A program made the position numbers and the translations under genes. Below are positions 1-9,498 of a DNA stretch of 9,498 nt, in pieces; within the stretch, counting starts at the first letter, position 1, and each line of letters starts with the position of its first letter. The stretch is from Candidatus Heimdallarchaeota archaeon (GTDB lineage: Archaea > Asgardarchaeota > Heimdallarchaeia > JABLTI01): positions 1 through 9,498 of the forward strand of contig JAUWKS010000095.1 in assembly GCA_030614005.1 (NCBI GenBank), written 5' to 3'. The notes beneath the pieces are model-generated. The model was not told the DNA's origin. It searched no databases and worked only from the letters and a program-made list of their open reading frames with translations.

Positions 1-1
1 C

Positions 2-595
2 ATCATTGATGTTGCTACAGACGCTGTAGAAAAAATTATTGAGGGCAGAAGAATGACTCATATGGTATCCTTGCATCCTGATGGGTCAAAAGCATATATT
101 AGTAATATTGGTGATAATTCTATCTCTATTTTGGATATTGCTTCTTTGAAATGGTTAACACACATCCCTGTTGGTCGCAGTCCAGAAGGTATCAACATAA
201 GCCCTGATGGCAAATGGTTGTATTGTGCGAATCAAGATGATGATCAAGTCTTTGTTATTGATACTAGTAACAATGCATTACATGCAAGAATATCGACAGC
301 ACGAGTTCCCATTCGTGTTACTTTCAGTCGGGATGGAACTTTGGCTTTTATTCCAAACCGAGAAGGTAATTGTGTCTCGGTAGTTAAAGTAGCAACGCAT
401 CGGGAAATAAAACGTATTCCTGTTGGAATCTGGGCTGGAGGCACTGTGGTCAATGCCAAGGGCGACAAAGTGTATGTTGCCAACAACAAAACTAATGATA
501 TTTCTGTAATCGATGTTGAAACGCTCAAAGTTGTTGATACTATAGATGTGGGTCTTCACCCTGATGGCATGGCATTCTGCCGTGTTATCAAATAA
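2..595 (+). CDS. YVTN/YncE-family beta-propeller repeat protein, 5'-truncated by the window edge
   Basis: The frame is open from base 2 (IIDVATDAVEKIIEGRR) into the listed ORF at 53, so the true start lies upstream. About four ~42-aa blades of the form P.G...SPDG..(L/V)Y.AN......V.VID (e.g. SPEGINISPDGKWLYCANQDDDQVFVID; KVYVANNKTNDISVIDVET). Ends TAA at 593-595. Confidence 0.88.
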   Translation: MIDVATDAVEKIIEGRRMTHMVSLHPDGSKAYISNIGDNSISILDIASLKWLTHIPVGRSPEGINISPDGKWLYCANQDDDQVFVIDTSNNALHARISTARVPIRVTFSRDGTLAFIPNREGNCVSVVKVATHREIKRIPVGIWAGGTVVNAKGDKVYVANNKTNDISVIDVETLKVVDTIDVGLHPDGMAFCRVIK

Positions 596-606
596 ACCGG
601 GTGAAC

Positions 607-621
607 TCTTTTCTTTTTATT
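607..621 (+). terminator. U-rich archaeal-type terminator after the beta-propeller gene
   Basis: TCTTTTCTTTTTATT begins 12 nt after the stop codon. Confidence 0.45.
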
Positions 622-676
622 ACCACAATATTTAATTCATTTGACTAATTACTCGATTTAATACTTGGTGTGCTTA

Positions 677-1558
677 ATGGAATATTTGGTTGAAGTCAAT
701 TCTGAACTCTGCATCGGTTGCCAAGCTTGTATAGATGTTTGCCCTCGTGATTGTTTTGTTCTAAATACAGAAGGAAAATCTAAGATGGGTTCCCATCTAT
801 GCCATTCTTGTGGTCATTGTATTTCCGTTTGCCCAGAAAAGGCGATCAAACATCGGGATTTTACCGAAGAAGAGTATTCACTGATCAGTGATATTTTGCA
901 TTCAAAAATGGTAGATGGTGAACAATTATCCTTTTTACTCAAATCCATTCGAAGTACTCGAAAATATAAGAGTAAACCAATCTCTAAAGAAATATTATCC
1001 CAGCTAGTAGAAACTGGTCGATTTTCTCCAACAGGCCACCATGCTCAAAATGTTGAAATAGTGATTGTGGATACTCCCGAAACAATTCAGCAGCTAAAAG
1101 ATGAAACTGCTGTTGCTTTCAAAGGATTTTTGAAAAAAATAGACAACCCATTCCTTCGTCTTCTGGGGATTTTGCTTGGGAAAGGAGACTCAATTCGAAA
1201 AGCTCGAGGCTCTCGAGCAAGACTTGTCCGGATACTTTCCGGATTTGCGGAAGGAACAGATTATCTCTTTCATGATGCACCAGTTGTGGTTGTTTTTCAT
1301 GCTAAGACAAAAGGAATTGTTCCTCTGGAAAATTGTACCATTGCTTCTACATATATGAGAATTGTCTGTGAAGGTTTTGGTTTAGGGTCTTGCTATATTG
1401 GTTACTTGGTATATTCTTCAAAATATAATCACAAAATTCGTGAAATGTTAAATATACCAAAAGAAAATACTATTTTTCAAGTAATGATCGTTGGGTATCC
1501 AAAGCACAAATTTAGAACGTTCGTTGCTAGAAATCCTGCTAAAGTACAATGGAAGTAA
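677..1558 (+). CDS. Nitroreductase-family flavoprotein with N-terminal 2x[4Fe-4S] ferredoxin domain
   Basis: Two ferredoxin motifs, CIGCQACIDVCP and CHSCGHCISVCP. FMN-binding RSTRKY segment, SPTGHHAQ, and C-terminal GLGSCYIG and VGYP motifs typical of nitroreductases. ATG at 677 preferred to TTG at 665 because GGTG (667-670) sits 6 nt upstream of it. Confidence 0.92.
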   Translation: MEYLVEVNSELCIGCQACIDVCPRDCFVLNTEGKSKMGSHLCHSCGHCISVCPEKAIKHRDFTEEEYSLISDILHSKMVDGEQLSFLLKSIRSTRKYKSKPISKEILSQLVETGRFSPTGHHAQNVEIVIVDTPETIQQLKDETAVAFKGFLKKIDNPFLRLLGILLGKGDSIRKARGSRARLVRILSGFAEGTDYLFHDAPVVVVFHAKTKGIVPLENCTIASTYMRIVCEGFGLGSCYIGYLVYSSKYNHKIREMLNIPKENTIFQVMIVGYPKHKFRTFVARNPAKVQWK

Positions 1559-1586
1559 TCTAAATTAGCTCTAGGTGAATGAAAAA

Positions 1587-2162
1587 ATGACCGATTTAAA
1601 CACTTTCCTCAAAAAAAATAAGAAATCTATTCATGAATTACTCAATCATATGTGGCAAAATATCGAACGAATAGCCATACAATTTGAAGAAGCTTTACCA
1701 GATGTCGATTTAGATAATTCCCATGGTAACTACATTCGAATTGACAAAGGGTGGTCTGAAGCTATCTATGCAAATCCTAGTATTGCTTTTCCTTTTGGAG
1801 AATTTGGTTATTCTTTGGATGGGCTATTTTGCGTGTTTACAATTAACCCTAAAGCATTCACCGAGAAGATCCTAGGTAAGATTGTTGCCATCTCTCGAGA
1901 GAATCCTGCAATTACCTTTGAAGCTTATGGTGGTGATGATTGCTTTCAGACATTCTTTCATTCCAATGATGAAAGCGATTTTGATACTATCATAACTGCA
2001 ATACAGAGTACATCTGAGGAATCTATTCAACTAGAACTAACTATTGAAGCTGTTGCAGAAGAAGCTGTAAAAGATGCACTTGTAACAACCACCATAAAAG
2101 TTCATCATTTATTGAAAGAAGAACAATGTTTAATGAATTTACCTCAATATTCTCCTGAATAA
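1587..2162 (+). CDS. DUF3201-like archaeal protein of unknown function
   Basis: IHELLNHMW, YIRIDKGWSEAIY.NP, (F)GEFG and YGGDD.F..FF resemble, from memory, the Thermococcales DUF3201 family (IHEFLN.MW, YI..DG.W....YPHP, IYG..NF..DFY). AGGTGA (1573-1578) lies 8 nt before ATG 1587, so the listed GTG at 1575 is part of the RBS. 28-nt gap to the nitroreductase gene. Confidence 0.7.
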   Translation: MTDLNTFLKKNKKSIHELLNHMWQNIERIAIQFEEALPDVDLDNSHGNYIRIDKGWSEAIYANPSIAFPFGEFGYSLDGLFCVFTINPKAFTEKILGKIVAISRENPAITFEAYGGDDCFQTFFHSNDESDFDTIITAIQSTSEESIQLELTIEAVAEEAVKDALVTTTIKVHHLLKEEQCLMNLPQYSPE

Positions 2163-2181
2163 ATCACAGGAGTTTATCGAA

Positions 2182-2198
2182 CTTATTTTCCTTTCTTC
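2182..2198 (+). terminator. Pyrimidine-rich terminator in the gap between convergent genes
   Basis: CTTATTTTCCTTTCTTC, about 20 nt after the DUF3201-like stop codon. Confidence 0.35.
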
Positions 2199-2215
2199 AA
2201 AGACTACTGCTTAGT

Positions 2216-3115
2216 CTATCCTTTCATTTCCTCTGATTTTTCTCTTTGTTTAATTATCTCGTCTCTGAATGTCGCATGCTGTAAAACATCGTAATCATTG
2301 TTGAGATAAGTTAAGGTCAATGAACAATCAAACAAGGGATAGAGCGCTGCTCTGACAAAAATCATTATTATGCCCATCCAATCTCCAGTCATCTCAATAA
2401 AAGTATTTGTTAAAGCCCAAGGGAGAATAATACTGACAAAGGCATAAATTCCTACAATCATTGTGGTTTTGAGCCAATTGCTGCTTCTTGTTAAATCAAA
2501 GGAACGTTGAAAAGCTCTACCTACAGACAATTCCTCTTTGTTTATTGCAACAACAAATAGGCTTATCTTACTTCCCAGTAGTATTGGGAAACCGACTGAA
2601 ATTACTAGCATTATCCAACTAACGAATGGTACTCGTGCATTGAAAAGTATCCCGAAAATAAAGATTAAAGCAGGAATAGCTAGAAAGCCAATTAACATTA
2701 ATGAAGCAAAGAATAATTCCTTAAATCTTCTACCAGTTAAATCTATAGCCCAAAAAACATTTGCTTTTGATTTCTCAACTGTCTTCCAACATAGGTTTGT
2801 TATTATCGAGCTTCTTAGGATAAATAACAGCACTGCAACAATTATCAAAGGGATCAGATAAGGTGTTACATACTCATTTCTAAAATCAAGTGAAAAAATA
2901 AATTGATGTGAAATAAAATTATATTTAAGATTAATTAAAACTAAGTAAAAGATACCAAAGATCAGTAATTCTGGAATTAACGAAATAGTAAACATTTGAA
3001 AGAATTGCCTGAAATAAATTCTGAAAGGAGCAACAAGTAATTTAAAAATCCCATATTCATCGACTTTTAAGTTATCAGTTGGTTTTTTCTCAACTTTCTC
3101 TACTTGTTCACTCAT
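2216..3115 (-). CDS. Multi-pass (about 6 TM) membrane protein, DUF7847/YciC/GPDPase-membrane-domain-like
   Basis: 299 aa with six long hydrophobic stretches. N-terminal 'FRIYFRQFFQMFTISLIP' and 'LSVGRAFQRSFDLTRSSNWLK' match the 'Al..S..Lt...w' signature I associate with this superfamily. The family call is from memory. Confidence 0.75.
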   Translation of the reverse strand: MSEQVEKVEKKPTDNLKVDEYGIFKLLVAPFRIYFRQFFQMFTISLIPELLIFGIFYLVLINLKYNFISHQFIFSLDFRNEYVTPYLIPLIIVAVLLFILRSSIITNLCWKTVEKSKANVFWAIDLTGRRFKELFFASLMLIGFLAIPALIFIFGILFNARVPFVSWIMLVISVGFPILLGSKISLFVVAINKEELSVGRAFQRSFDLTRSSNWLKTTMIVGIYAFVSIILPWALTNTFIEMTGDWMGIIMIFVRAALYPLFDCSLTLTYLNNDYDVLQHATFRDEIIKQREKSEEMKG

Positions 3116-3244
3116 AATTTGCCTTCATCAGAGTTCATTCATAATTATTCCTATGACTCTAATTTTCTCAATCATTGATACCTCTTTCTTGTTTTTTGGG
3201 AAACTTTTTCTCCTAGTTAAACATGAAATTTGATGGAGAGAGTG

Positions 3245-3262
3245 AATAAAAAAGAAAAGAGG
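3245..3262 (-). terminator. U-rich terminator downstream of the site-2 protease pair
   Basis: The minus strand reads CCTCTTTTCTTTTTTATT starting 7 nt after the TAA at 3269-3271. Confidence 0.5.
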
Positions 3263-3268
3263 TGTAGG

Positions 3269-4876
3269 TTATGCTTCGAGTGGCACACCTAATAATGATA
3301 GAACTTGAAATATAGGCAACGGGGTACAAATAATTGCTAAGAAATATCCGAAAATAAGGTAGATGTATTTTGACCAATGAACCTTCGAGACATCATCAGT
3401 AGGACCCGGATGTTTTTGGAACATACCCATAAATAATATTAGAAAACCAAAGTATCTTGTAAATGGATTCAGCGCTAACAATAGACCGATTATTATTGTG
3501 AATATTCTGTGTGGTGTATCACCAAAGACTGCTCGAGCAGTGTGTCCTCCATCTAATTGGCTTGCGGGCATCAAATTAATACCTGTTAAGATAAAACCCA
3601 CCCATCCGGCAAATGCGACTGGATGTTGAACAATAATTTGTGTTGTGGGGTCATAATAAGGTATTATTCCAGTTGAAAAGCTAAAATACTCTAACCAATT
3701 GCTTAGAAAAACTGTCGGTATAAGCGTTAAATCAATAGGATCTCCCGCAGGTACAGGAATATCTGCCACATACGTAAGTTTTAGTCCAATGATAAATATT
3801 GGCACTGCAACAGCGAATCCTGCCATTGGTCCTGAAAACCCGATATCAAATAAATCATCTCGAGTAGCAATTTGCTCCTTTTGTTGAATTACCGCCCCAA
3901 ATGTTCCAAGAGTTGGAAATGCTGGAAACGATGGTACTGGAATGAAATATGGTAGAGATGCATCTATTTTCTTATTTCTCGATACAAAATAATGACCAAA
4001 TTCGTGAATCGTCAAAATACCTATCAAACAAATAGTATAAAGAAAAATATCGAGTGCCATATTTCCCTCAATATTGTACGTTTCAAAAGTTGCTGTTATG
4101 TATGTCCATCCTGCCAATGCAACAGTAACGATTGTGGCTAAAAATAAACCAATATTCCAGGCAATTTTCTTAAATTGGAATTGTTCCTGAGCTGATTCTT
4201 TTTCCCAATAATAGAATCGAATGACGATTTGTTTATTACCAGGAGCAATGAGCTCATTACGAATAAGTACTTTCAAGTTATTTTCAGTGAAAATTGATTC
4301 CTTTCTCAAAGCAGTAAATTTCATACGTTCGGAACCTTCTTCAGGTCTTTGAACGGTGACTTTTGGTCCAATGCTCTCAACGATTTGGCTATCAATAATT
4401 CTTAAATGCTTAGCTATTGTCTCATTTACTTCTTCTAATGTTAGATCCACTTGTTTTAAGTCTCGTATTTTTGGTGCAAGGACACTTATTGTCTTCTTGA
4501 TTTCAATTACTTGGGTTTCAACCACCGCTTTCAAATATGACAAACCATTCCTTGTGAGAGGTGCGCCACAAATTCCACAAGTGTCCCCTGATGTTGTGCC
4601 ATTACAATCCCAACATTTTATACCGATGGGTGCTTCTGATCTTGCAATAACTTTTTCTTTGACATCTGGACTGAGTGGTGCTCTGCATTTGAAACATTTT
4701 ACAACGTCTGGGTGAGGTATAGATGCCCCACAATTCCAGCAAAACCCTTTATCTTCTTCCGTATTGTGTGCACTAATATCATTATCATTTACTTTTGTTG
4801 AAGCAATTTTCGTTTCCGCTATTTTTGTCGTGGATTCTTTGTCTAAATCAAAATCATTTGTTTTTTTAGATGTCAA
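3269..4876 (-). CDS. Site-2 protease (peptidase M50, EGY1/archaeal-type) with N-terminal double zinc ribbon; paralog A
   Basis: HEFGH (aa 291-295, nt 3992-4006), FDIGFSGP, and NLMPASQLDGGH carrying the third Zn ligand D442. Multiple TM segments after about aa 240. Eight Cys: CWNC-x11-CFKC and CWDC-x8-CGIC (nt 4568-4741). TTG start with GAGGT 7 nt upstream; the first in-frame ATG is at aa 185, downstream of the ribbons. Confidence 0.92.
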   Translation of the reverse strand: MTSKKTNDFDLDKESTTKIAETKIASTKVNDNDISAHNTEEDKGFCWNCGASIPHPDVVKCFKCRAPLSPDVKEKVIARSEAPIGIKCWDCNGTTSGDTCGICGAPLTRNGLSYLKAVVETQVIEIKKTISVLAPKIRDLKQVDLTLEEVNETIAKHLRIIDSQIVESIGPKVTVQRPEEGSERMKFTALRKESIFTENNLKVLIRNELIAPGNKQIVIRFYYWEKESAQEQFQFKKIAWNIGLFLATIVTVALAGWTYITATFETYNIEGNMALDIFLYTICLIGILTIHEFGHYFVSRNKKIDASLPYFIPVPSFPAFPTLGTFGAVIQQKEQIATRDDLFDIGFSGPMAGFAVAVPIFIIGLKLTYVADIPVPAGDPIDLTLIPTVFLSNWLEYFSFSTGIIPYYDPTTQIIVQHPVAFAGWVGFILTGINLMPASQLDGGHTARAVFGDTPHRIFTIIIGLLLALNPFTRYFGFLILFMGMFQKHPGPTDDVSKVHWSKYIYLIFGYFLAIICTPLPIFQVLSLLGVPLEA

Positions 4877-4979
4877 AAAAGTGACCTCATATCCAGCTTC
4901 TACGTTATATCACCGCCATTCAAAGTAATAAAGACTAGCTTATAGTTTGAAATTCAGACTGAGTTGTAGAACTTACTTC

Positions 4980-6617
4980 TTAAGACATGAAAAGAAATGA
5001 AGGTAATGGGAAACAAACTATTGCAATTGAAATTGCGAATGTTCCTAGAATATATCTTGACCAATGAGGTCGTAGTGCTTCATTTGTAACTGGTGTTTGG
5101 AACAGATTTCTAGGAACGAACATTGTTAACACTCCTAGCCCCCAAGTTGTGAAATTGAACATAAGGAATAGCGATGTTGCAAAAGAAAAGACTCGAGTTA
5201 ACCGCTCTCCAAATAAACTTCGAAACATAAAACCACCATCGAGCATAGAACCTGGGAGATAATTTAACCCATTTAGAATCAAACCTACAATTGCTGCATA
5301 TGTTAGCGGATGGATAAATGATACTTGTGTTTCTAGGTTAATTGTGGGAGCTAAATTAGTAACTGAACCAAACCAATTGAAGAACATTAAGATAAGCATA
5401 ACTGGGTCAAATTGCTGAATTTCAGTGATTCTGTCAAGAGCAGTTTGGGATAGATCAGAAATTTCAGCTATATATGGCGAAGAAAGTCCAACTAGTAAAA
5501 GAACTATAGATGTTACCACTCCTACAAGTGGTCCGTAAAAATAAAGATCAAATAGATCATTCCGTTTGTGTACTGGATTGAGCACTCGAATAAATCCTCC
5601 AGCAGCACCAAGCAGGAAGTAACTCATAAACCCTGGAATGGGTGGAATAGGAAGGAAGTATGGTAAGGACAAGGTAATTTTTTTCACCCGTTGAACAACA
5701 AAGTGCGCTAGTTCGTGCATTACCGAAATTCCAAGCAATGCACAAGTAAAAATAATGACATCAACAGCCATGCTTTTTTCAATTGAAAAGAGATCAAAAA
5801 CCTCTCGAGTATAAAACCATCCTGCAAGGATAATTGTTGTAATTGTTAAAGCCAGAGCGAGGAGTTTCCAGCGAATATTTTTGAAGTTAAATCTATTGAC
5901 TTCTTCTAGAGGCTTCCAGTAAAAGAAGCGTATTGCAACTAAATCCTCTTCATTCGAGGGGATCTTTATTCCTTTGTAAAGTACTCGGAGATTCTTTTCA
6001 ACAATTAGTTTCTCTTGCTCAAATTTATCATAAAGATTGCTTTTAGCTGGTCGTTTAATAATCATTTCAGGTCCGAAATTTGTAAGAGCAGAACGTCTTA
6101 TCGTGAAATATTTTGCAATAGTTGCTTCTAAGTCGGTGAATTTCATTGCTATTCTGATTAACTTACGATCCTTCGGTGATAAAATAAAAAGAAATTCTTG
6201 TTCTTTTTCCGATAGCAAATCGGTGCTCTGTTTAACATCTTCTGCTAGTGATCTTATTCCTTCTGCTGTTAATGGACTACCACAGACACCACAAATATTC
6301 CCTGAAGTTGTCCCTCCACATCTCCAGCATTTTATTGCATTTGCACTTATGTTACGACTTAATACTTCTTGTTTAACACTCTCTTTTATTGGTGCTCTGC
6401 ACACATCACACCAATCATTTTCCTTTAAATTTGCATTACAATTCCAACATTTAGTTTGGGCTTTAGCTGGTCTTGATAAATCGGACATCCCATACAAAAC
6501 TTCGTCCCATGATTTTCCTGCATCTTCTTTTGAGGTTTTTATATTAGCTTCAAGTTCTTTTTTAGCATCAACATTCTGTTTCTTATTCTTCTTGCTGTTC
6601 TTGTTTTCCTCATTCAA
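4980..6617 (-). CDS. Site-2 protease (peptidase M50) with N-terminal double zinc ribbon; paralog B
   Basis: HELAH (aa 301-305, nt 5703-5717), FDLYFYGP, and NYLPGSMLDGGF with D460. CWNC-x9-CDVC and CWRC-x8-CGVC (nt 6282-6449). TTG start with GGTG 7 nt upstream; an alternative start at Met44 cannot be excluded. Confidence 0.9.
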   Translation of the reverse strand: MNEENKNSKKNKKQNVDAKKELEANIKTSKEDAGKSWDEVLYGMSDLSRPAKAQTKCWNCNANLKENDWCDVCRAPIKESVKQEVLSRNISANAIKCWRCGGTTSGNICGVCGSPLTAEGIRSLAEDVKQSTDLLSEKEQEFLFILSPKDRKLIRIAMKFTDLEATIAKYFTIRRSALTNFGPEMIIKRPAKSNLYDKFEQEKLIVEKNLRVLYKGIKIPSNEEDLVAIRFFYWKPLEEVNRFNFKNIRWKLLALALTITTIILAGWFYTREVFDLFSIEKSMAVDVIIFTCALLGISVMHELAHFVVQRVKKITLSLPYFLPIPPIPGFMSYFLLGAAGGFIRVLNPVHKRNDLFDLYFYGPLVGVVTSIVLLLVGLSSPYIAEISDLSQTALDRITEIQQFDPVMLILMFFNWFGSVTNLAPTINLETQVSFIHPLTYAAIVGLILNGLNYLPGSMLDGGFMFRSLFGERLTRVFSFATSLFLMFNFTTWGLGVLTMFVPRNLFQTPVTNEALRPHWSRYILGTFAISIAIVCFPLPSFLFMS

Positions 6618-6671
6618 AAGGATGCACCATCAAACTAACTAACTATCAATACTGAATAACAAAGAATTGAT

Positions 6672-6686
6672 TATTTAAGTTTCTTT
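6672..6686 (-). promoter_or_regulatory. BRE + TATA box for the site-2 protease pair
   Basis: The minus strand reads AAAGAAA-CTTAAATA, matching archaeal BRE plus YTTAWATA, about 55 nt upstream of the TTG at 6617. Confidence 0.55.
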
Positions 6687-6826
6687 TTAAAATCCAAAAA
6701 TTAAACGAATAATACAAAAAAAGCATTTTGCTACATTTAGAAAAACCTAAAAACGAAAAGAATAATCTCCCGAACGCAGAACAAAAACCAATTTTCCAAA
6801 GCAAGTAAAAAAAGGGATGAATTAGT

Positions 6827-7309
6827 GTGACAAATTATAGAATACGAAGATTTAATCCGGAAACAGATATTGAAGCGGTTCAGTTAGTAAACAGTATCTG
6901 CCTCCCTGAAAACTATCCAAGATTTTTTTTCCTTGAGATAACAGATAAATTTCCCGAAGGTTTCAATATAGCTGAATTAGAAGATGGTTTTAAGGAAATA
7001 GTCGGATATGAAATGACTCGCATTGAAAGGGGTTTGTCGAATTATGGTTTTGGAATTTGTAAGAAAGGGCATATTATCTCAATTGCTGTGCTGGACAAAT
7101 ATCGTAGATTACAAATAGCTGAGAAATTAATGGATGCAGCGCATAATGCACTACGCCTTCGTGATGTGCGAGAAGTCTATTTGGAAGTACGAGAATCAAA
7201 TCAAGCAGCAGTTAATCTCTACCAAAAGCTTGGTTACCAACAAAACAAAATTTCTAAACATTATTACACAGATGGTGAATCTGCAATTATAATGACTAGC
7301 AAAATATAG
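6827..7309 (+). CDS. ard1: N-terminal (N-alpha) acetyltransferase, Ard1/Naa10-like GNAT (often annotated RimI)
   Basis: CLPENY, KGHIISIAV, YLEVRESNQAAVNLYQKLG and YYTDGESA follow Sulfolobus Ard1 and eukaryotic Naa10 motifs. GTG start with GGGATGA (6814-6820) upstream. Confidence 0.92.
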   Translation: MTNYRIRRFNPETDIEAVQLVNSICLPENYPRFFFLEITDKFPEGFNIAELEDGFKEIVGYEMTRIERGLSNYGFGICKKGHIISIAVLDKYRRLQIAEKLMDAAHNALRLRDVREVYLEVRESNQAAVNLYQKLGYQQNKISKHYYTDGESAIIMTSKI

Positions 7310-7331
7310 CAAAAGCCAGCTAATCTCAAAA

Positions 7332-7398
7332 TCTTTTTTCATTTATTTTAAAAAAATAAAAAATAAGAGGGGAAGTTCTAAGAGGTAAACTCTTAGAA
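7332..7398. terminator. Bidirectional termination region: 9-bp hairpin plus U-tracts on both strands
   Basis: Perfect inverted repeat TTCTAAGAG-gtaaa-CTCTTAGAA at 7376-7398 overlaps the thermosome stop. On the minus strand it is followed by CTTCCCCTCTTATTTTTATTTTTT. The + strand carries TCTTTTTTCATTTATTTT at 7332-7349 after ard1. Confidence 0.6.
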
Positions 7399-9039
7399 GC
7401 CGTCCATACCAGGCATACCACCACCGGGCATACCGCCTGGAGCACCACCTGGAGAAGATTTAGCTGCAATGATGTCGTCAATTCTGAGAATCATTTGAGC
7501 TGCTTCACTTGCGGAAGTAATTGCTTGTCGAGTAACACTAACTGGCTCGAAAATTTTGGCTTTAACCATATCAACTGGCTTGCCTGTTTTAAGGTCAACA
7601 CCTGCAGTATGTCCGCCTTTGTCGTGTTCTGCTCTTAAAGCAACGAGAACATCAATAGGATCTAAACCAGCATTTTCAGCTAAGGTTCTTGGAATAATTT
7701 CAAGAGCTTCAGCGAATTTTTCTACTGCTAGTTGTTCTCTACCTGCGAGAGTATTAGCGTATTCTTTCAATTTGCGTGAGAGGTAAATTTGAGGAGCTCC
7801 TCCACCAGGAACAACTAAACCATCTTGGATAATGTTTCTAACAACACAGAGAGCATCATGGATTGAACGTTCAGCTTCATCAACAATCATGTCGCTTCCA
7901 CCACGAATCATAATACTAACGCTCTTTGGATTTGGGCAACCTTCAACGAAAACAAAATCATCATCAGCAATTTTGCGTTCTTCAACATTTTTAGCTTCTC
8001 CAAGGTCGCTTGCTTCAATACCATCAATTCTAGTAACGATGCTTGCACCTGTAGCCATAGCAAGTTTTTCCATGTCGGATTTCTTGATTCGTCTAACTGC
8101 AAGGATTCCTTTTTTGGAGAGGAAATGTTGAGCTAAATCATCAATGCCCTTTTGTGAGAGAACAACATTTGCACCAGAAGCAATGATATTATCAACCATA
8201 TCTTTGATCATTGATTGTTCTTGATCGAGGAATGATTTCATTTGATCTGGGCTTGTGATATTTATTTTAGCGTCAAATTCAGTTTTGGAGATTTCAACAG
8301 CAGCATCAATCAAGAGTATTTTTGCATCCTCGATTTTCTTTGGCATGCTAGAATGAACAATGCTCTTATCGAGAATAATTCCCTTAATTAAATTAGTTTC
8401 TTTGATGGATTCACCTTTCTTCTTCTCAATTTTGATATTGTCAATATCACAAGTTCTCTTTCCATTTTCTTCTACAGTAACTGTTAATGCAGCCTCAATA
8501 ACCATTTCAGAAAGGTAATCACTGTGACCAGCGATAACTTTGCTACCCATAGCAGTCATTACGCCTTGTTTGAGTATTGCTTTATCATTAAAATCAACAT
8601 TGATAGCCATTGTCTTTAGGTGTTCCAATGCTTTGGCTGTTGCTTTTCGATATCCGTCAACAATAATGCTAGCGTGAACATCTTGAGATAATAGCTCTTC
8701 AGCTTGCTTCAATAATTCACCAGCAATAATTACAACTGTGGTTGTTCCATCGCCAACCTCATCATCTTGAACCTTTGCTAGTTCAACAATGAATTTAGCG
8801 GCTGGATGTTGAATTTCCATTTCTTTAAGTATGGTGGCACCATCATTTGTAATAACAACATCACCAAAGGAATCAACTAACATTTTATCTAGACCTTTTG
8901 GACCAAGAGCAGATCTAATTGCTTCCGCAACAACTTTTGCAGCTGCAATGTTGTTTTGTTGAGCATTTTTACCTGTAGTCCTTTCGGTACCTTCTCTGAG
9001 GAGGAGCACTTGTTGCCCGCCTAAATTTACAAGACTCAT
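7393..9039 (-). CDS. ths: Thermosome subunit (group II chaperonin); alpha versus beta not resolvable by eye
   Basis: [26 protein letters not shown] (nt 8737-8754), helical protrusion [16 protein letters not shown], catalytic [18 protein letters not shown] and a GGM-rich tail. AAGGTGA RBS at 9049-9055. Confidence 0.98.
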
Positions 9040-9133
9040 TTCTTAAAATCACCTTATAGTTTTTAGATTTGTAAAACCTATTTTTTTCACGGTTTATTTC
9101 CCGCTTGATATGCTTTTTTGTGATTTGTAGTGA

Positions 9134-9148
9134 TATTTAAATCTTTCT
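9134..9148 (-). promoter_or_regulatory. BRE + TATA box of the thermosome gene
   Basis: The minus strand reads AGAAAGA-TTTAAATA, implying a transcription start near 9110 and a 5' UTR of about 70 nt. Confidence 0.6.
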
Positions 9149-9162
9149 TATGCTTTACTTTA

Positions 9163-9259
9163 AGAAAACTGATAGAAGAAAAAGAAATATAGAAATCAAT
9201 GTTCAATTAATTTTGCCATAATGACAGTTTTTTTATCTAGAAAACTGATTTTTCCCGCT
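9163..9259. repeat. Cluster of short repeats upstream of the thermosome promoter
   Basis: Direct repeat AGAAAACTGAT at 9163-9173 and 9239-9249. Inverted pair CAGTTTT(9226-9232)-N8-AAAACTG(9241-9247). TTTCCCGCT at 9251-9259, with a second copy at 9097-9105. Confidence 0.4.
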
Positions 9260-9400
9260 CAGATGTTATTAGTGGGTTTTGTCGTGATTTTTATTTATTA
9301 CTGTAAAAGAAATACACTCTTTTAAAATCTATAACAAATGAAACAAAGTGATATCCATTTGCTAAATATTTTGCCTTGTCAAAGTGTTTTCAACTCAAAA

Positions 9401-9431
9401 ATAAACCACATTATCAATTCATAAGAATTGA
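9401..9431 (-). terminator. Hairpin plus U-tract terminator of the upstream minus-strand gene
   Basis: TCAATTC-ataa-GAATTGA (9414-9431, 7-bp stem), followed on the minus strand by TGTGGTTTATTTTT. Confidence 0.35.
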
Positions 9432-9465
9432 ACAAAGTCAACGTGCATTTATTACTAATCTATCA

Positions 9466-9498
9466 CTAGGATTCAAGGGATTCATCAGGAAGTTCTTC
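9466..9498 (-). CDS. Probable 3' end of a gene starting beyond the window (…EELPDESLES*)
   Basis: The minus frame from 9498 reads an acidic tail EELPDESLES, then TAG TGA TAG, then a terminator-like element. Only 10 codons are visible. Confidence 0.35.
   Translation of the reverse strand, partial: EELPDESLES

Follow-up and report, generated by a model that had tools for sequence, protein, structure and literature searches.

Site-2 Proteases and Their Accessory Domains

Site-2 proteases (S2Ps) belong to the M50 peptidase family, and the accessory domains described for them are PDZ and CBS domains (PMC9401612, PMC9263693). None of the archaeal S2Ps has a known substrate or signal (PMC9263693). 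A stretch of 9,498 nucleotides of Candidatus Heimdallarchaeota DNA (assembly GCA_030614005.1, contig JAUWKS010000095.1, positions 1 to 9,498; the window) carries a tandem pair of S2P genes, A and B, in which the protease is preceded by a module with two predicted zinc ribbons. No paper on a ribbon-bearing S2P was found in the searched literature, which leaves out most subscription journals.

Other S2Ps differ from the pair in their accessory domains. RseP and human S2P (group I) have the same catalytic motifs and follow the logic of regulated intramembrane proteolysis, but the match is weak (E 0.05) and their PDZ domain is extracytoplasmic, inserted between transmembrane (TM) helices; A and B lack a PDZ domain. 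MjS2P (3b4r) and SpoIVFB (8vjl), both group III, have a cytoplasmic accessory domain, as is predicted for the ribbon module of A and B. In their case it is a C-terminal CBS domain, whereas A and B have N-terminal ribbons and a ferredoxin-like domain. Among plant EGY proteins, EGY2-like sequences align structurally with B, as do algal M50 proteins, over a span that starts in the alpha/beta region and takes in the core up to its end; the EGY proteins are plastid proteins without zinc ribbons.

The closest relatives outside the ribbon-bearing group are ordinary archaeal S2Ps of ~360–420 residues (e.g., A0A7J4F777, A0A662MPV8, and A0A7J2NH70), which have the same six-TM M50 core, the HExxH and NxxPxxxLDG motifs, and a ferredoxin-like N-terminal domain. 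They include Bathyarchaeota, Methanobacteriota, and Asgard M50 clusters, are 30–43% identical over the shared parts, and share the motif HPGPxDDVS with B only. They lack the disordered tail and the zinc ribbons of A and B, and their lineages lack a tandem ribboned pair. To our knowledge, no ordinary archaeal S2P of these clusters has been functionally characterized.

The window is AT-rich archaeal DNA (~35% G+C), and the source names of the closest homologues are Heimdallarchaeota or "Asgard group." The initial annotation of the window, which was made from the sequence alone, described adjacent co-oriented open reading frames (ORFs) of 545 and 535 residues, and these match exactly in position, both on the minus strand with a gap of 103 nucleotides (nt). 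It also described two intact paralogous S2Ps of common architecture, and each protein indeed has a Pfam M50 domain, the CxxC motif four times, and HExxH and NxxPxxxLDG once each. Aligned end to end, the two proteins show 35% identity. The ratio of nonsynonymous to synonymous substitution rates (dN/dS) against the closest species is 0.10–0.40 in every segment of A and B and 0.10–0.26 in the structured parts. By this measure, A and B are real genes under purifying selection.

Two Predicted Active Membrane Proteases

The Peptidase_M50 model (PF02163; gathering cut-off 27.2 bits) scores 57.2 bits on A and 74.6 bits on B, both above the cut-off. The HExxH motif and the LDG aspartate, said in the initial annotation to be retained in both proteins, are invariant in all 26 A-type and 32 B-type sequences. 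In the A orthologues the invariant set comprises the eight ribbon cysteines, H301/E302/H305, and N452..D460-G461; in the B orthologues it comprises the eight cysteines, H291/E292/H295, and N434..D442-G443. The N, P, D, and G of NxxPxxxLDG do not vary in either group, and the aspartate is the third zinc ligand.

An AlphaFold2 model of B, built on a 103-row alignment, has a mean predicted local distance difference test score (pLDDT) of 89.8 and a predicted template modeling score (pTM) of 0.78. It starts with a disordered segment (residues 1–39), followed by the ribbons (~45–108), a helix, a low-confidence linker, the alpha/beta domain (130–225), and six TM helices from residue 235. HExxH lies at the end of predicted TM2 and LDG at a kink of TM4, on the same face of the membrane, and the TM3–TM4 loop has only ~50 residues. 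The proteins end ~10–20 residues after TM6. In Foldseek searches the model matches MjS2P and SpoIVFB with probability 1.0 as the best solved structures for the core, although template modeling scores by target are only 0.41–0.46, and it matches predicted archaeal S2P structures at E 1e-24. A sequence profile of B found nothing in the PDB at E<=0.01. Pfam gives no match to a PDZ domain, a CBS domain, or EGY3_M in A or B, and NCBIfam has no family for either protein. On sequence grounds, A and B can be classed as membrane-embedded M50 S2Ps with intact catalytic sites, and both would be expected to be active.

The location of the N-terminal module follows from the membrane part. There is no hydrophobic segment before residue ~238, and thus no signal peptide, in keeping with the initial annotation. 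The module should be cytoplasmic because six TM helices are predicted, basic residues sit before TM1, and the topology of group III S2Ps is established from MjS2P (PMC9401612). A cytoplasmic ribbon module, which had also been proposed at the outset, is the most likely arrangement and agrees with the shared face of the two catalytic motifs in the model.

The Predicted Zinc Ribbons and the Alpha/Beta Domain

The eight ribbon cysteines are invariant in all 58 sequences. The ribbon part of the B model contains short strands and has a pLDDT of 92–97, and zinc binding is predicted from the cysteine pattern. The second ribbon carries a GTTSG loop outside the ligands that is invariant in both paralogues, and this ribbon is among the most conserved stretches of each. 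The repeated CxxC...CxxC pattern resembles DZR and Zn_Ribbon_1 (PF12773 and PF13240), but the GTTSG loop and a CW-C signature are specific to the A/B clade. Pfam DZR (PF12773) scores 18.8 bits on B (E 0.0018), below its cut-off of 27.3, and does not match A. This subthreshold score lowers the case for DZR membership, not that for identity as a pair of C4 ribbons.

A profile of the N-terminal module was used in an exhaustive search of 1.84 billion representatives, and at E<1e-30 it retrieved nothing but members of the A and B groups, whole or fragmentary. Beyond these groups, the profile finds DZR/Zn_Ribbon_1 proteins that have only the double ribbon in common with it, or proteins with one ribbon and the alpha/beta domain; multi-ribbon DZR proteins match over its first ~75 positions. 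Ribbon 2 compared by sequence with the PDB gives only weak matches to the ribbons of Spt4, RpoE'', and eL37 (E 0.017–0.1 for Spt4 and RpoE''). An identity of the ribbons as ubiquitin-binding fingers of the RanBP2/NZF type was rejected: the cysteine spacing and loop residues differ, and the sole structural match of this kind had a probability of 0.30.

Zinc-containing anti-sigma factors are an analogy for a switch based on cysteines and zinc, and the ribbons could be sensors of redox state or metal in which proteolysis is switched on or off when the eight cysteines are oxidized or lose their zinc. Such a role would suit a cytoplasmic module that keeps eight cysteines without exception and is attached to a signaling-type protease. 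However, invariant C4 ribbons are mostly structural, and those of A and B look like the generic DZR/Zn_Ribbon_1 modules that many unrelated proteins carry. The GTTSG loop varies no more than the cysteines do, a sign of a binding surface and not of thiol chemistry, and the catalytically dead relatives described in the next section retain a ribbon without protease activity to regulate. Redox or metal sensing is considered very unlikely.

Behind the ribbons, the alpha/beta domain of B has the order beta-beta-alpha-beta-beta-alpha-alpha-beta-beta. Structural comparison of the N-terminal module with the PDB gives generic ferredoxin-like matches (GspM/EpsM, PilO, ACT, and RAM) with Z<=6.9, within the noise range of the tool, and barely tests the ribbons. 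The initial annotation listed a soluble domain of ~100 residues as a shared feature of the pair; the domain is present but is not special to A and B, since ordinary archaeal S2Ps have it too. Their first ~80–110 residues (within ~9–118) match the alpha/beta domain of B, their predicted structures align to B from residue 147 onward, and sequence matches of ~360–375 residues cover 70–74% of B. The alpha/beta domain is thus ancestral to ordinary archaeal S2Ps, and A and B add to this plan no more than a disordered tail and a pair of ribbons.

Origin and Divergence of the Ribbon-Bearing Proteins

A and B form one clade (SH-like approximate likelihood ratio test [SH-aLRT] 98) in which the stem of A is long, with 1.15 changes per column, and the stems of B are short. 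In the membrane part, B is 37% and A 27% identical to ordinary S2Ps. In the TM5–TM6 loop of the prediction, B retains the HPGPxDDVS motif seen in ordinary S2Ps, and A has a different sequence in its place. As judged by these comparisons, B is the conservative paralogue and A the fast-diverged one.

Ribbon fusions are not unique to the A–B pair, because single-ribbon relatives exist both with and without catalytic motifs. One of them, P0040 (L046:5344-6780), is a single-ribbon S2P with the alpha/beta domain and is predicted to be active; it lies outside the family of the window and is known from two metagenomic contigs only. When its first 230 residues served as the query of a word-based search, P0040 itself was the sole match. 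The others come from a sister family of the same class (f5), where a single-ribbon S2P homologue of ~437 residues is found in 11 of 12 genomes across six genera (L048-L058; L045:6001-7314). HExxH and the LDG aspartate are lost in all 12 sequences examined, i.e., the 11 genomic copies and the metagenomic query P0178, for which NCBIfam has no family. This clade looks like a conserved archaeal S2P pseudoprotease. EGY3 is likewise an S2P homologue without the catalytic motif (PMC9355673). That the dead relatives keep the ribbon argues for a role of the module beyond regulating catalysis. The f5 gene is often near a RimI-like GNAT gene, as is gene A in the window.

In a tree made without the ribbon columns, all ribbon-bearing proteins fall on one side against 44 ordinary S2Ps (SH-aLRT 97). 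This tree is consistent with a single origin of the ribbon fusion, with long branches as a reason for caution. The source genome also encodes a 320-residue protein (contig C73; L064:1492-2454) with an AN1 zinc finger (54 bits) at its N-terminus, ahead of a membrane part that resembles an S2P but lacks HExxH and LDG. It is a second S2P-like protein of this genome with a zinc finger at its head, and apparently a dead one.

Distribution and Neighboring Genes

In a sample of 399 Asgard genomes, the N-terminal module is found in all 12 genomes of the window's family in the Genome Taxonomy Database (GTDB), which span two genera, and always in two copies. The ribbon pair was not found with this query in the 387 other Asgard genomes, where it matched just two sequences, weakly and in part (E 2e-5 and 4e-4). 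In 10 of the 12 genomes, which are all of those where the contigs allow it, A is the gene immediately upstream of B. The pair is thus conserved beyond one genome, as had been claimed, and the synteny survey across Asgard genomes proposed in the initial annotation finds the tandem order kept within this family. A and B are the only members of their S2P subtype in the source genome (90% complete), which has no ribbon-less copy; its third M50 protein, on contig C30, is of the PDZ type. The most divergent A orthologue (G082, L035:8550-10060) has a single TAA codon in frame within the linker that joins the ribbons to the alpha/beta domain, and the catalytic motifs beyond it are intact. The stop may be due to a sequencing error, may mark a pseudogene, or may separate ribbon module and protease naturally. 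In another genome (G087), the B orthologue is interrupted.

Synteny within the family covers a block of eight genes, namely those for a thermosome and a RimI-like GNAT, then A and B, a 299-residue membrane ORF, DUF3201, a Fer4-nitroreductase, and a beta-propeller protein. The polytopic 299-residue ORF (2216-3115, minus strand) is co-oriented downstream of B, keeps its position in all relatives examined at 34–81% identity, and has no Pfam or NCBIfam family. NCBIfam has no family for the DUF3201 neighbor either.

This housekeeping neighborhood is one reason to consider that the ribbons are not regulatory at all, but a structural or solubility appendage or a tether to nucleic acid or the ribosome, with A and B as redundant housekeeping proteases that clear the membrane. 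With no ribbon-less copy in the family, the ancestral function must fall to A and B; ribbon 2 has its weak likeness to the Spt4/RpoE'' ribbons; and RseP is an example of an S2P that also removes small membrane proteins (PMC10470546). It is more difficult to reconcile with this proposal that ribbon 2 is so highly conserved in both paralogues, and copies that were redundant would not be expected to survive throughout the 12 genomes, each group with conserved motifs of its own. A nonregulatory role seems improbable, if less so than redox or metal sensing.

The constant pairing also bears on the idea, raised in the initial annotation, that A and B form an obligate hetero-oligomeric protease derived from a duplicated self-associating S2P. 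Every genome of the family has both paralogues, with A next to and ahead of B on every contig that permits the comparison, and purifying selection acts on each. There are precedents for oligomeric S2Ps: PMC9263693 cites a dimeric S2P architecture, and the deposited SpoIVFB structure is a complex with its substrate (8vjl). The adjacency, however, is shared with six unrelated neighbor genes, each gene has a conserved promoter-like box of its own (see the next section), and A is interrupted by an in-frame stop in one species and B is broken in another, although these could be assembly errors. A complex prediction for A (residues 45–545) with B (40–535), each with its own alignment, scored 0.00 in a run without controls and speaks neither for nor against binding. 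An obligate hetero-oligomer is considered unlikely, though not to the degree of the two proposals above. The further suggestion of a two-step cascade of two S2Ps was rejected, as it has no known precedent and no supporting feature.

Transcription and Translation Signals

The features of the locus are collected in Table 1. The initial annotation recognized one promoter, a TFB recognition element (BRE) with a TATA box, upstream of the pair and one U-tract downstream. The U-tract after B stands, but a single promoter, and with it a single transcription unit, is not supported: the A–B gap has its own TATA-like box in eight of eight species. The elements in this gap, TAGTCTTTAT and TAnnACGTAnnAGCT, are kept across these eight species at a protein identity of only ~50%. 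Their combined pattern is unique in the genome, and a regulon search matched this locus only. B probably has its own promoter. The TAnnACGTAnnAGCT box holds palindromes (TACGTA in some species, AGCT) and is possibly the site of a regulator. No conserved RNA fold was found in the A–B gap (alifold energy about 0). T-tracts follow B in the relatives too and are mostly absent after A. A scan for bacterial promoters and terminators, which is not applicable to archaea, gave counts at shuffle level.

Both genes start with TTG (A, 6615-6617; B, 4874-4876), each behind a conserved Shine-Dalgarno sequence and each backed by TTG or GTG at the equivalent position in relatives. The start codon is GTG in some relatives and apparently CTG in one A orthologue. 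The conserved non-ATG starts of both paralogues suggest deliberately modest translation.

Table 1 Features of the A–B locus in window coordinates
Feature	Position	Strand	Basis
Gene A, 545-residue ribbon-tagged S2P, divergent paralogue	4980-6617	minus	ORF, Pfam M50
Gene B, 535-residue ribbon-tagged S2P, conservative paralogue	3269-4876	minus	ORF, Pfam M50
A, two predicted C4 zinc ribbons, Cys 57, 60, 70, 73 + 97, 100, 109, 112	6264-6452	minus	orthologue alignment
B, two predicted C4 zinc ribbons, Cys 46, 49, 61, 64 + 88, 91, 100, 103	4553-4744	minus	orthologue alignment
A, ferredoxin-like alpha/beta domain	5886-6200	minus	aligned to B domain and to ordinary archaeal S2P N-domain
B, ferredoxin-like alpha/beta domain, residues 130-225	4202-4489	minus	AlphaFold2; matches ordinary archaeal S2P N-domain
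A, HExxH = HELAH, residues 301-305	5703-5717	minus	motif, orthologue alignment
B, HExxH = HEFGH, residues 291-295	3992-4006	minus	motif, orthologue alignment
A, NxxPxxxLDG, residues 452-461	5235-5264	minus	motif, orthologue alignment
B, NxxPxxxLDG, residues 434-443	3548-3577	minus	motif, orthologue alignment
AGAAACTTAAA(T/A)A box, candidate BRE/TATA of A, 54-67 nt upstream of A TTG	6671-6684	minus	5-species alignment, raw sequence
TAGTCTTTAT in A–B gap, candidate BRE/TATA of B	4928-4937	minus	identical in 8 species
TAnnACGTAnnAGCT, second conserved box ~20 nt after TATA-like box, start-site region or regulator site	4895-4909	minus	8-species alignment
GAGG Shine-Dalgarno, 8 nt before B TTG	4885-4888	minus	conserved with TTG/GTG start in 8 species
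T-rich tract after B stop, candidate archaeal terminator	3245-3258	minus	raw sequence

Possible Role of the Ribbon Module

The best overall explanation, which is held with moderate confidence, is that A and B are two active S2Ps with a ribbon module for docking or gating, B keeping the ancestral role and A having diverged. It draws on sequence comparison and structure prediction, which show the gene structure, the conserved catalytic residues and cysteines, the fold, the distribution, the purifying selection, and the conserved boxes upstream; topology, activity, ribbon function, and division of labor are its inferred parts. A and B would descend from an ordinary archaeal S2P that already had a cytoplasmic ferredoxin-like N-domain. 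A C4 zinc ribbon would have been fused ahead of this domain in an ancestor within this Asgard class, and in the window's family the ribbon would have been doubled and the gene duplicated. B appears to have retained ancestral features and probably the ancestral job, i.e., cutting the TM segments of membrane-anchored substrates at the cytoplasmic leaflet. A would have diverged fast, notably in the TM5–TM6 loop beside the helices proposed to gate MjS2P, and probably acts on other substrates or under other conditions. A promoter-like element of its own precedes each gene. The ribbon module would offer a docking or gating surface for the cytoplasmic part of a substrate or for an adaptor. Its location would make it comparable to the CBS domain of SpoIVFB, which is cytoplasmic, and not to the PDZ domains of RseP, which lie outside the cytoplasm.

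Several points weigh against this explanation. Docking, sensing, and a purely structural role of the ribbons all fit the data alike, and the cytoplasmic placement is an indirect reading of sequence and model. The adjacency of A and B carries little functional weight because the whole, mostly housekeeping block is syntenic, and no substrate candidate was identified among the neighbors of the locus. Read-through from A to B, i.e., cotranscription, is possible, as most species lack a T-tract after A.

A more speculative extension of the docking or gating explanation takes in the single-ribbon relatives. The ribbon-tagged S2P lineage would have arisen once, with the GTTSG ribbon as a receptor for a cytoplasmic protein or modifier that gates cleavage. 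In the window's family the ribbon would have been doubled and would serve two differently regulated proteases, and in the sister family the scaffold would have lost catalysis and persisted as a ribbon-bearing pseudoprotease that acts as a receptor. This extension is tentative and on balance unlikely. If true, the dead clade would be an archaeal counterpart of pseudoproteases of the iRhom or EGY3 type.

Significance for Archaeal Site-2 Proteases

What is new by sequence is the combination of a disordered tail and a double ribbon on an S2P, confined to one family of uncultured archaea, while the M50 core and the alpha/beta domain are known. The ribbon pair is a variation, restricted to one lineage, on a well-known enzyme family, and its value lies in its use as a handle more than in any surprise. 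These organisms are close to the eukaryotic ancestor, and the ribbon module has no link here to the eukaryotic S2P. The clade provides three natural versions of the ribbon module joined to the protease: a predicted active form with one ribbon, a predicted active pair with two, and a catalytically dead form with one. The soluble module of ~80 residues could be used as bait and would offer a practical route to the first partner or substrate of an archaeal S2P.

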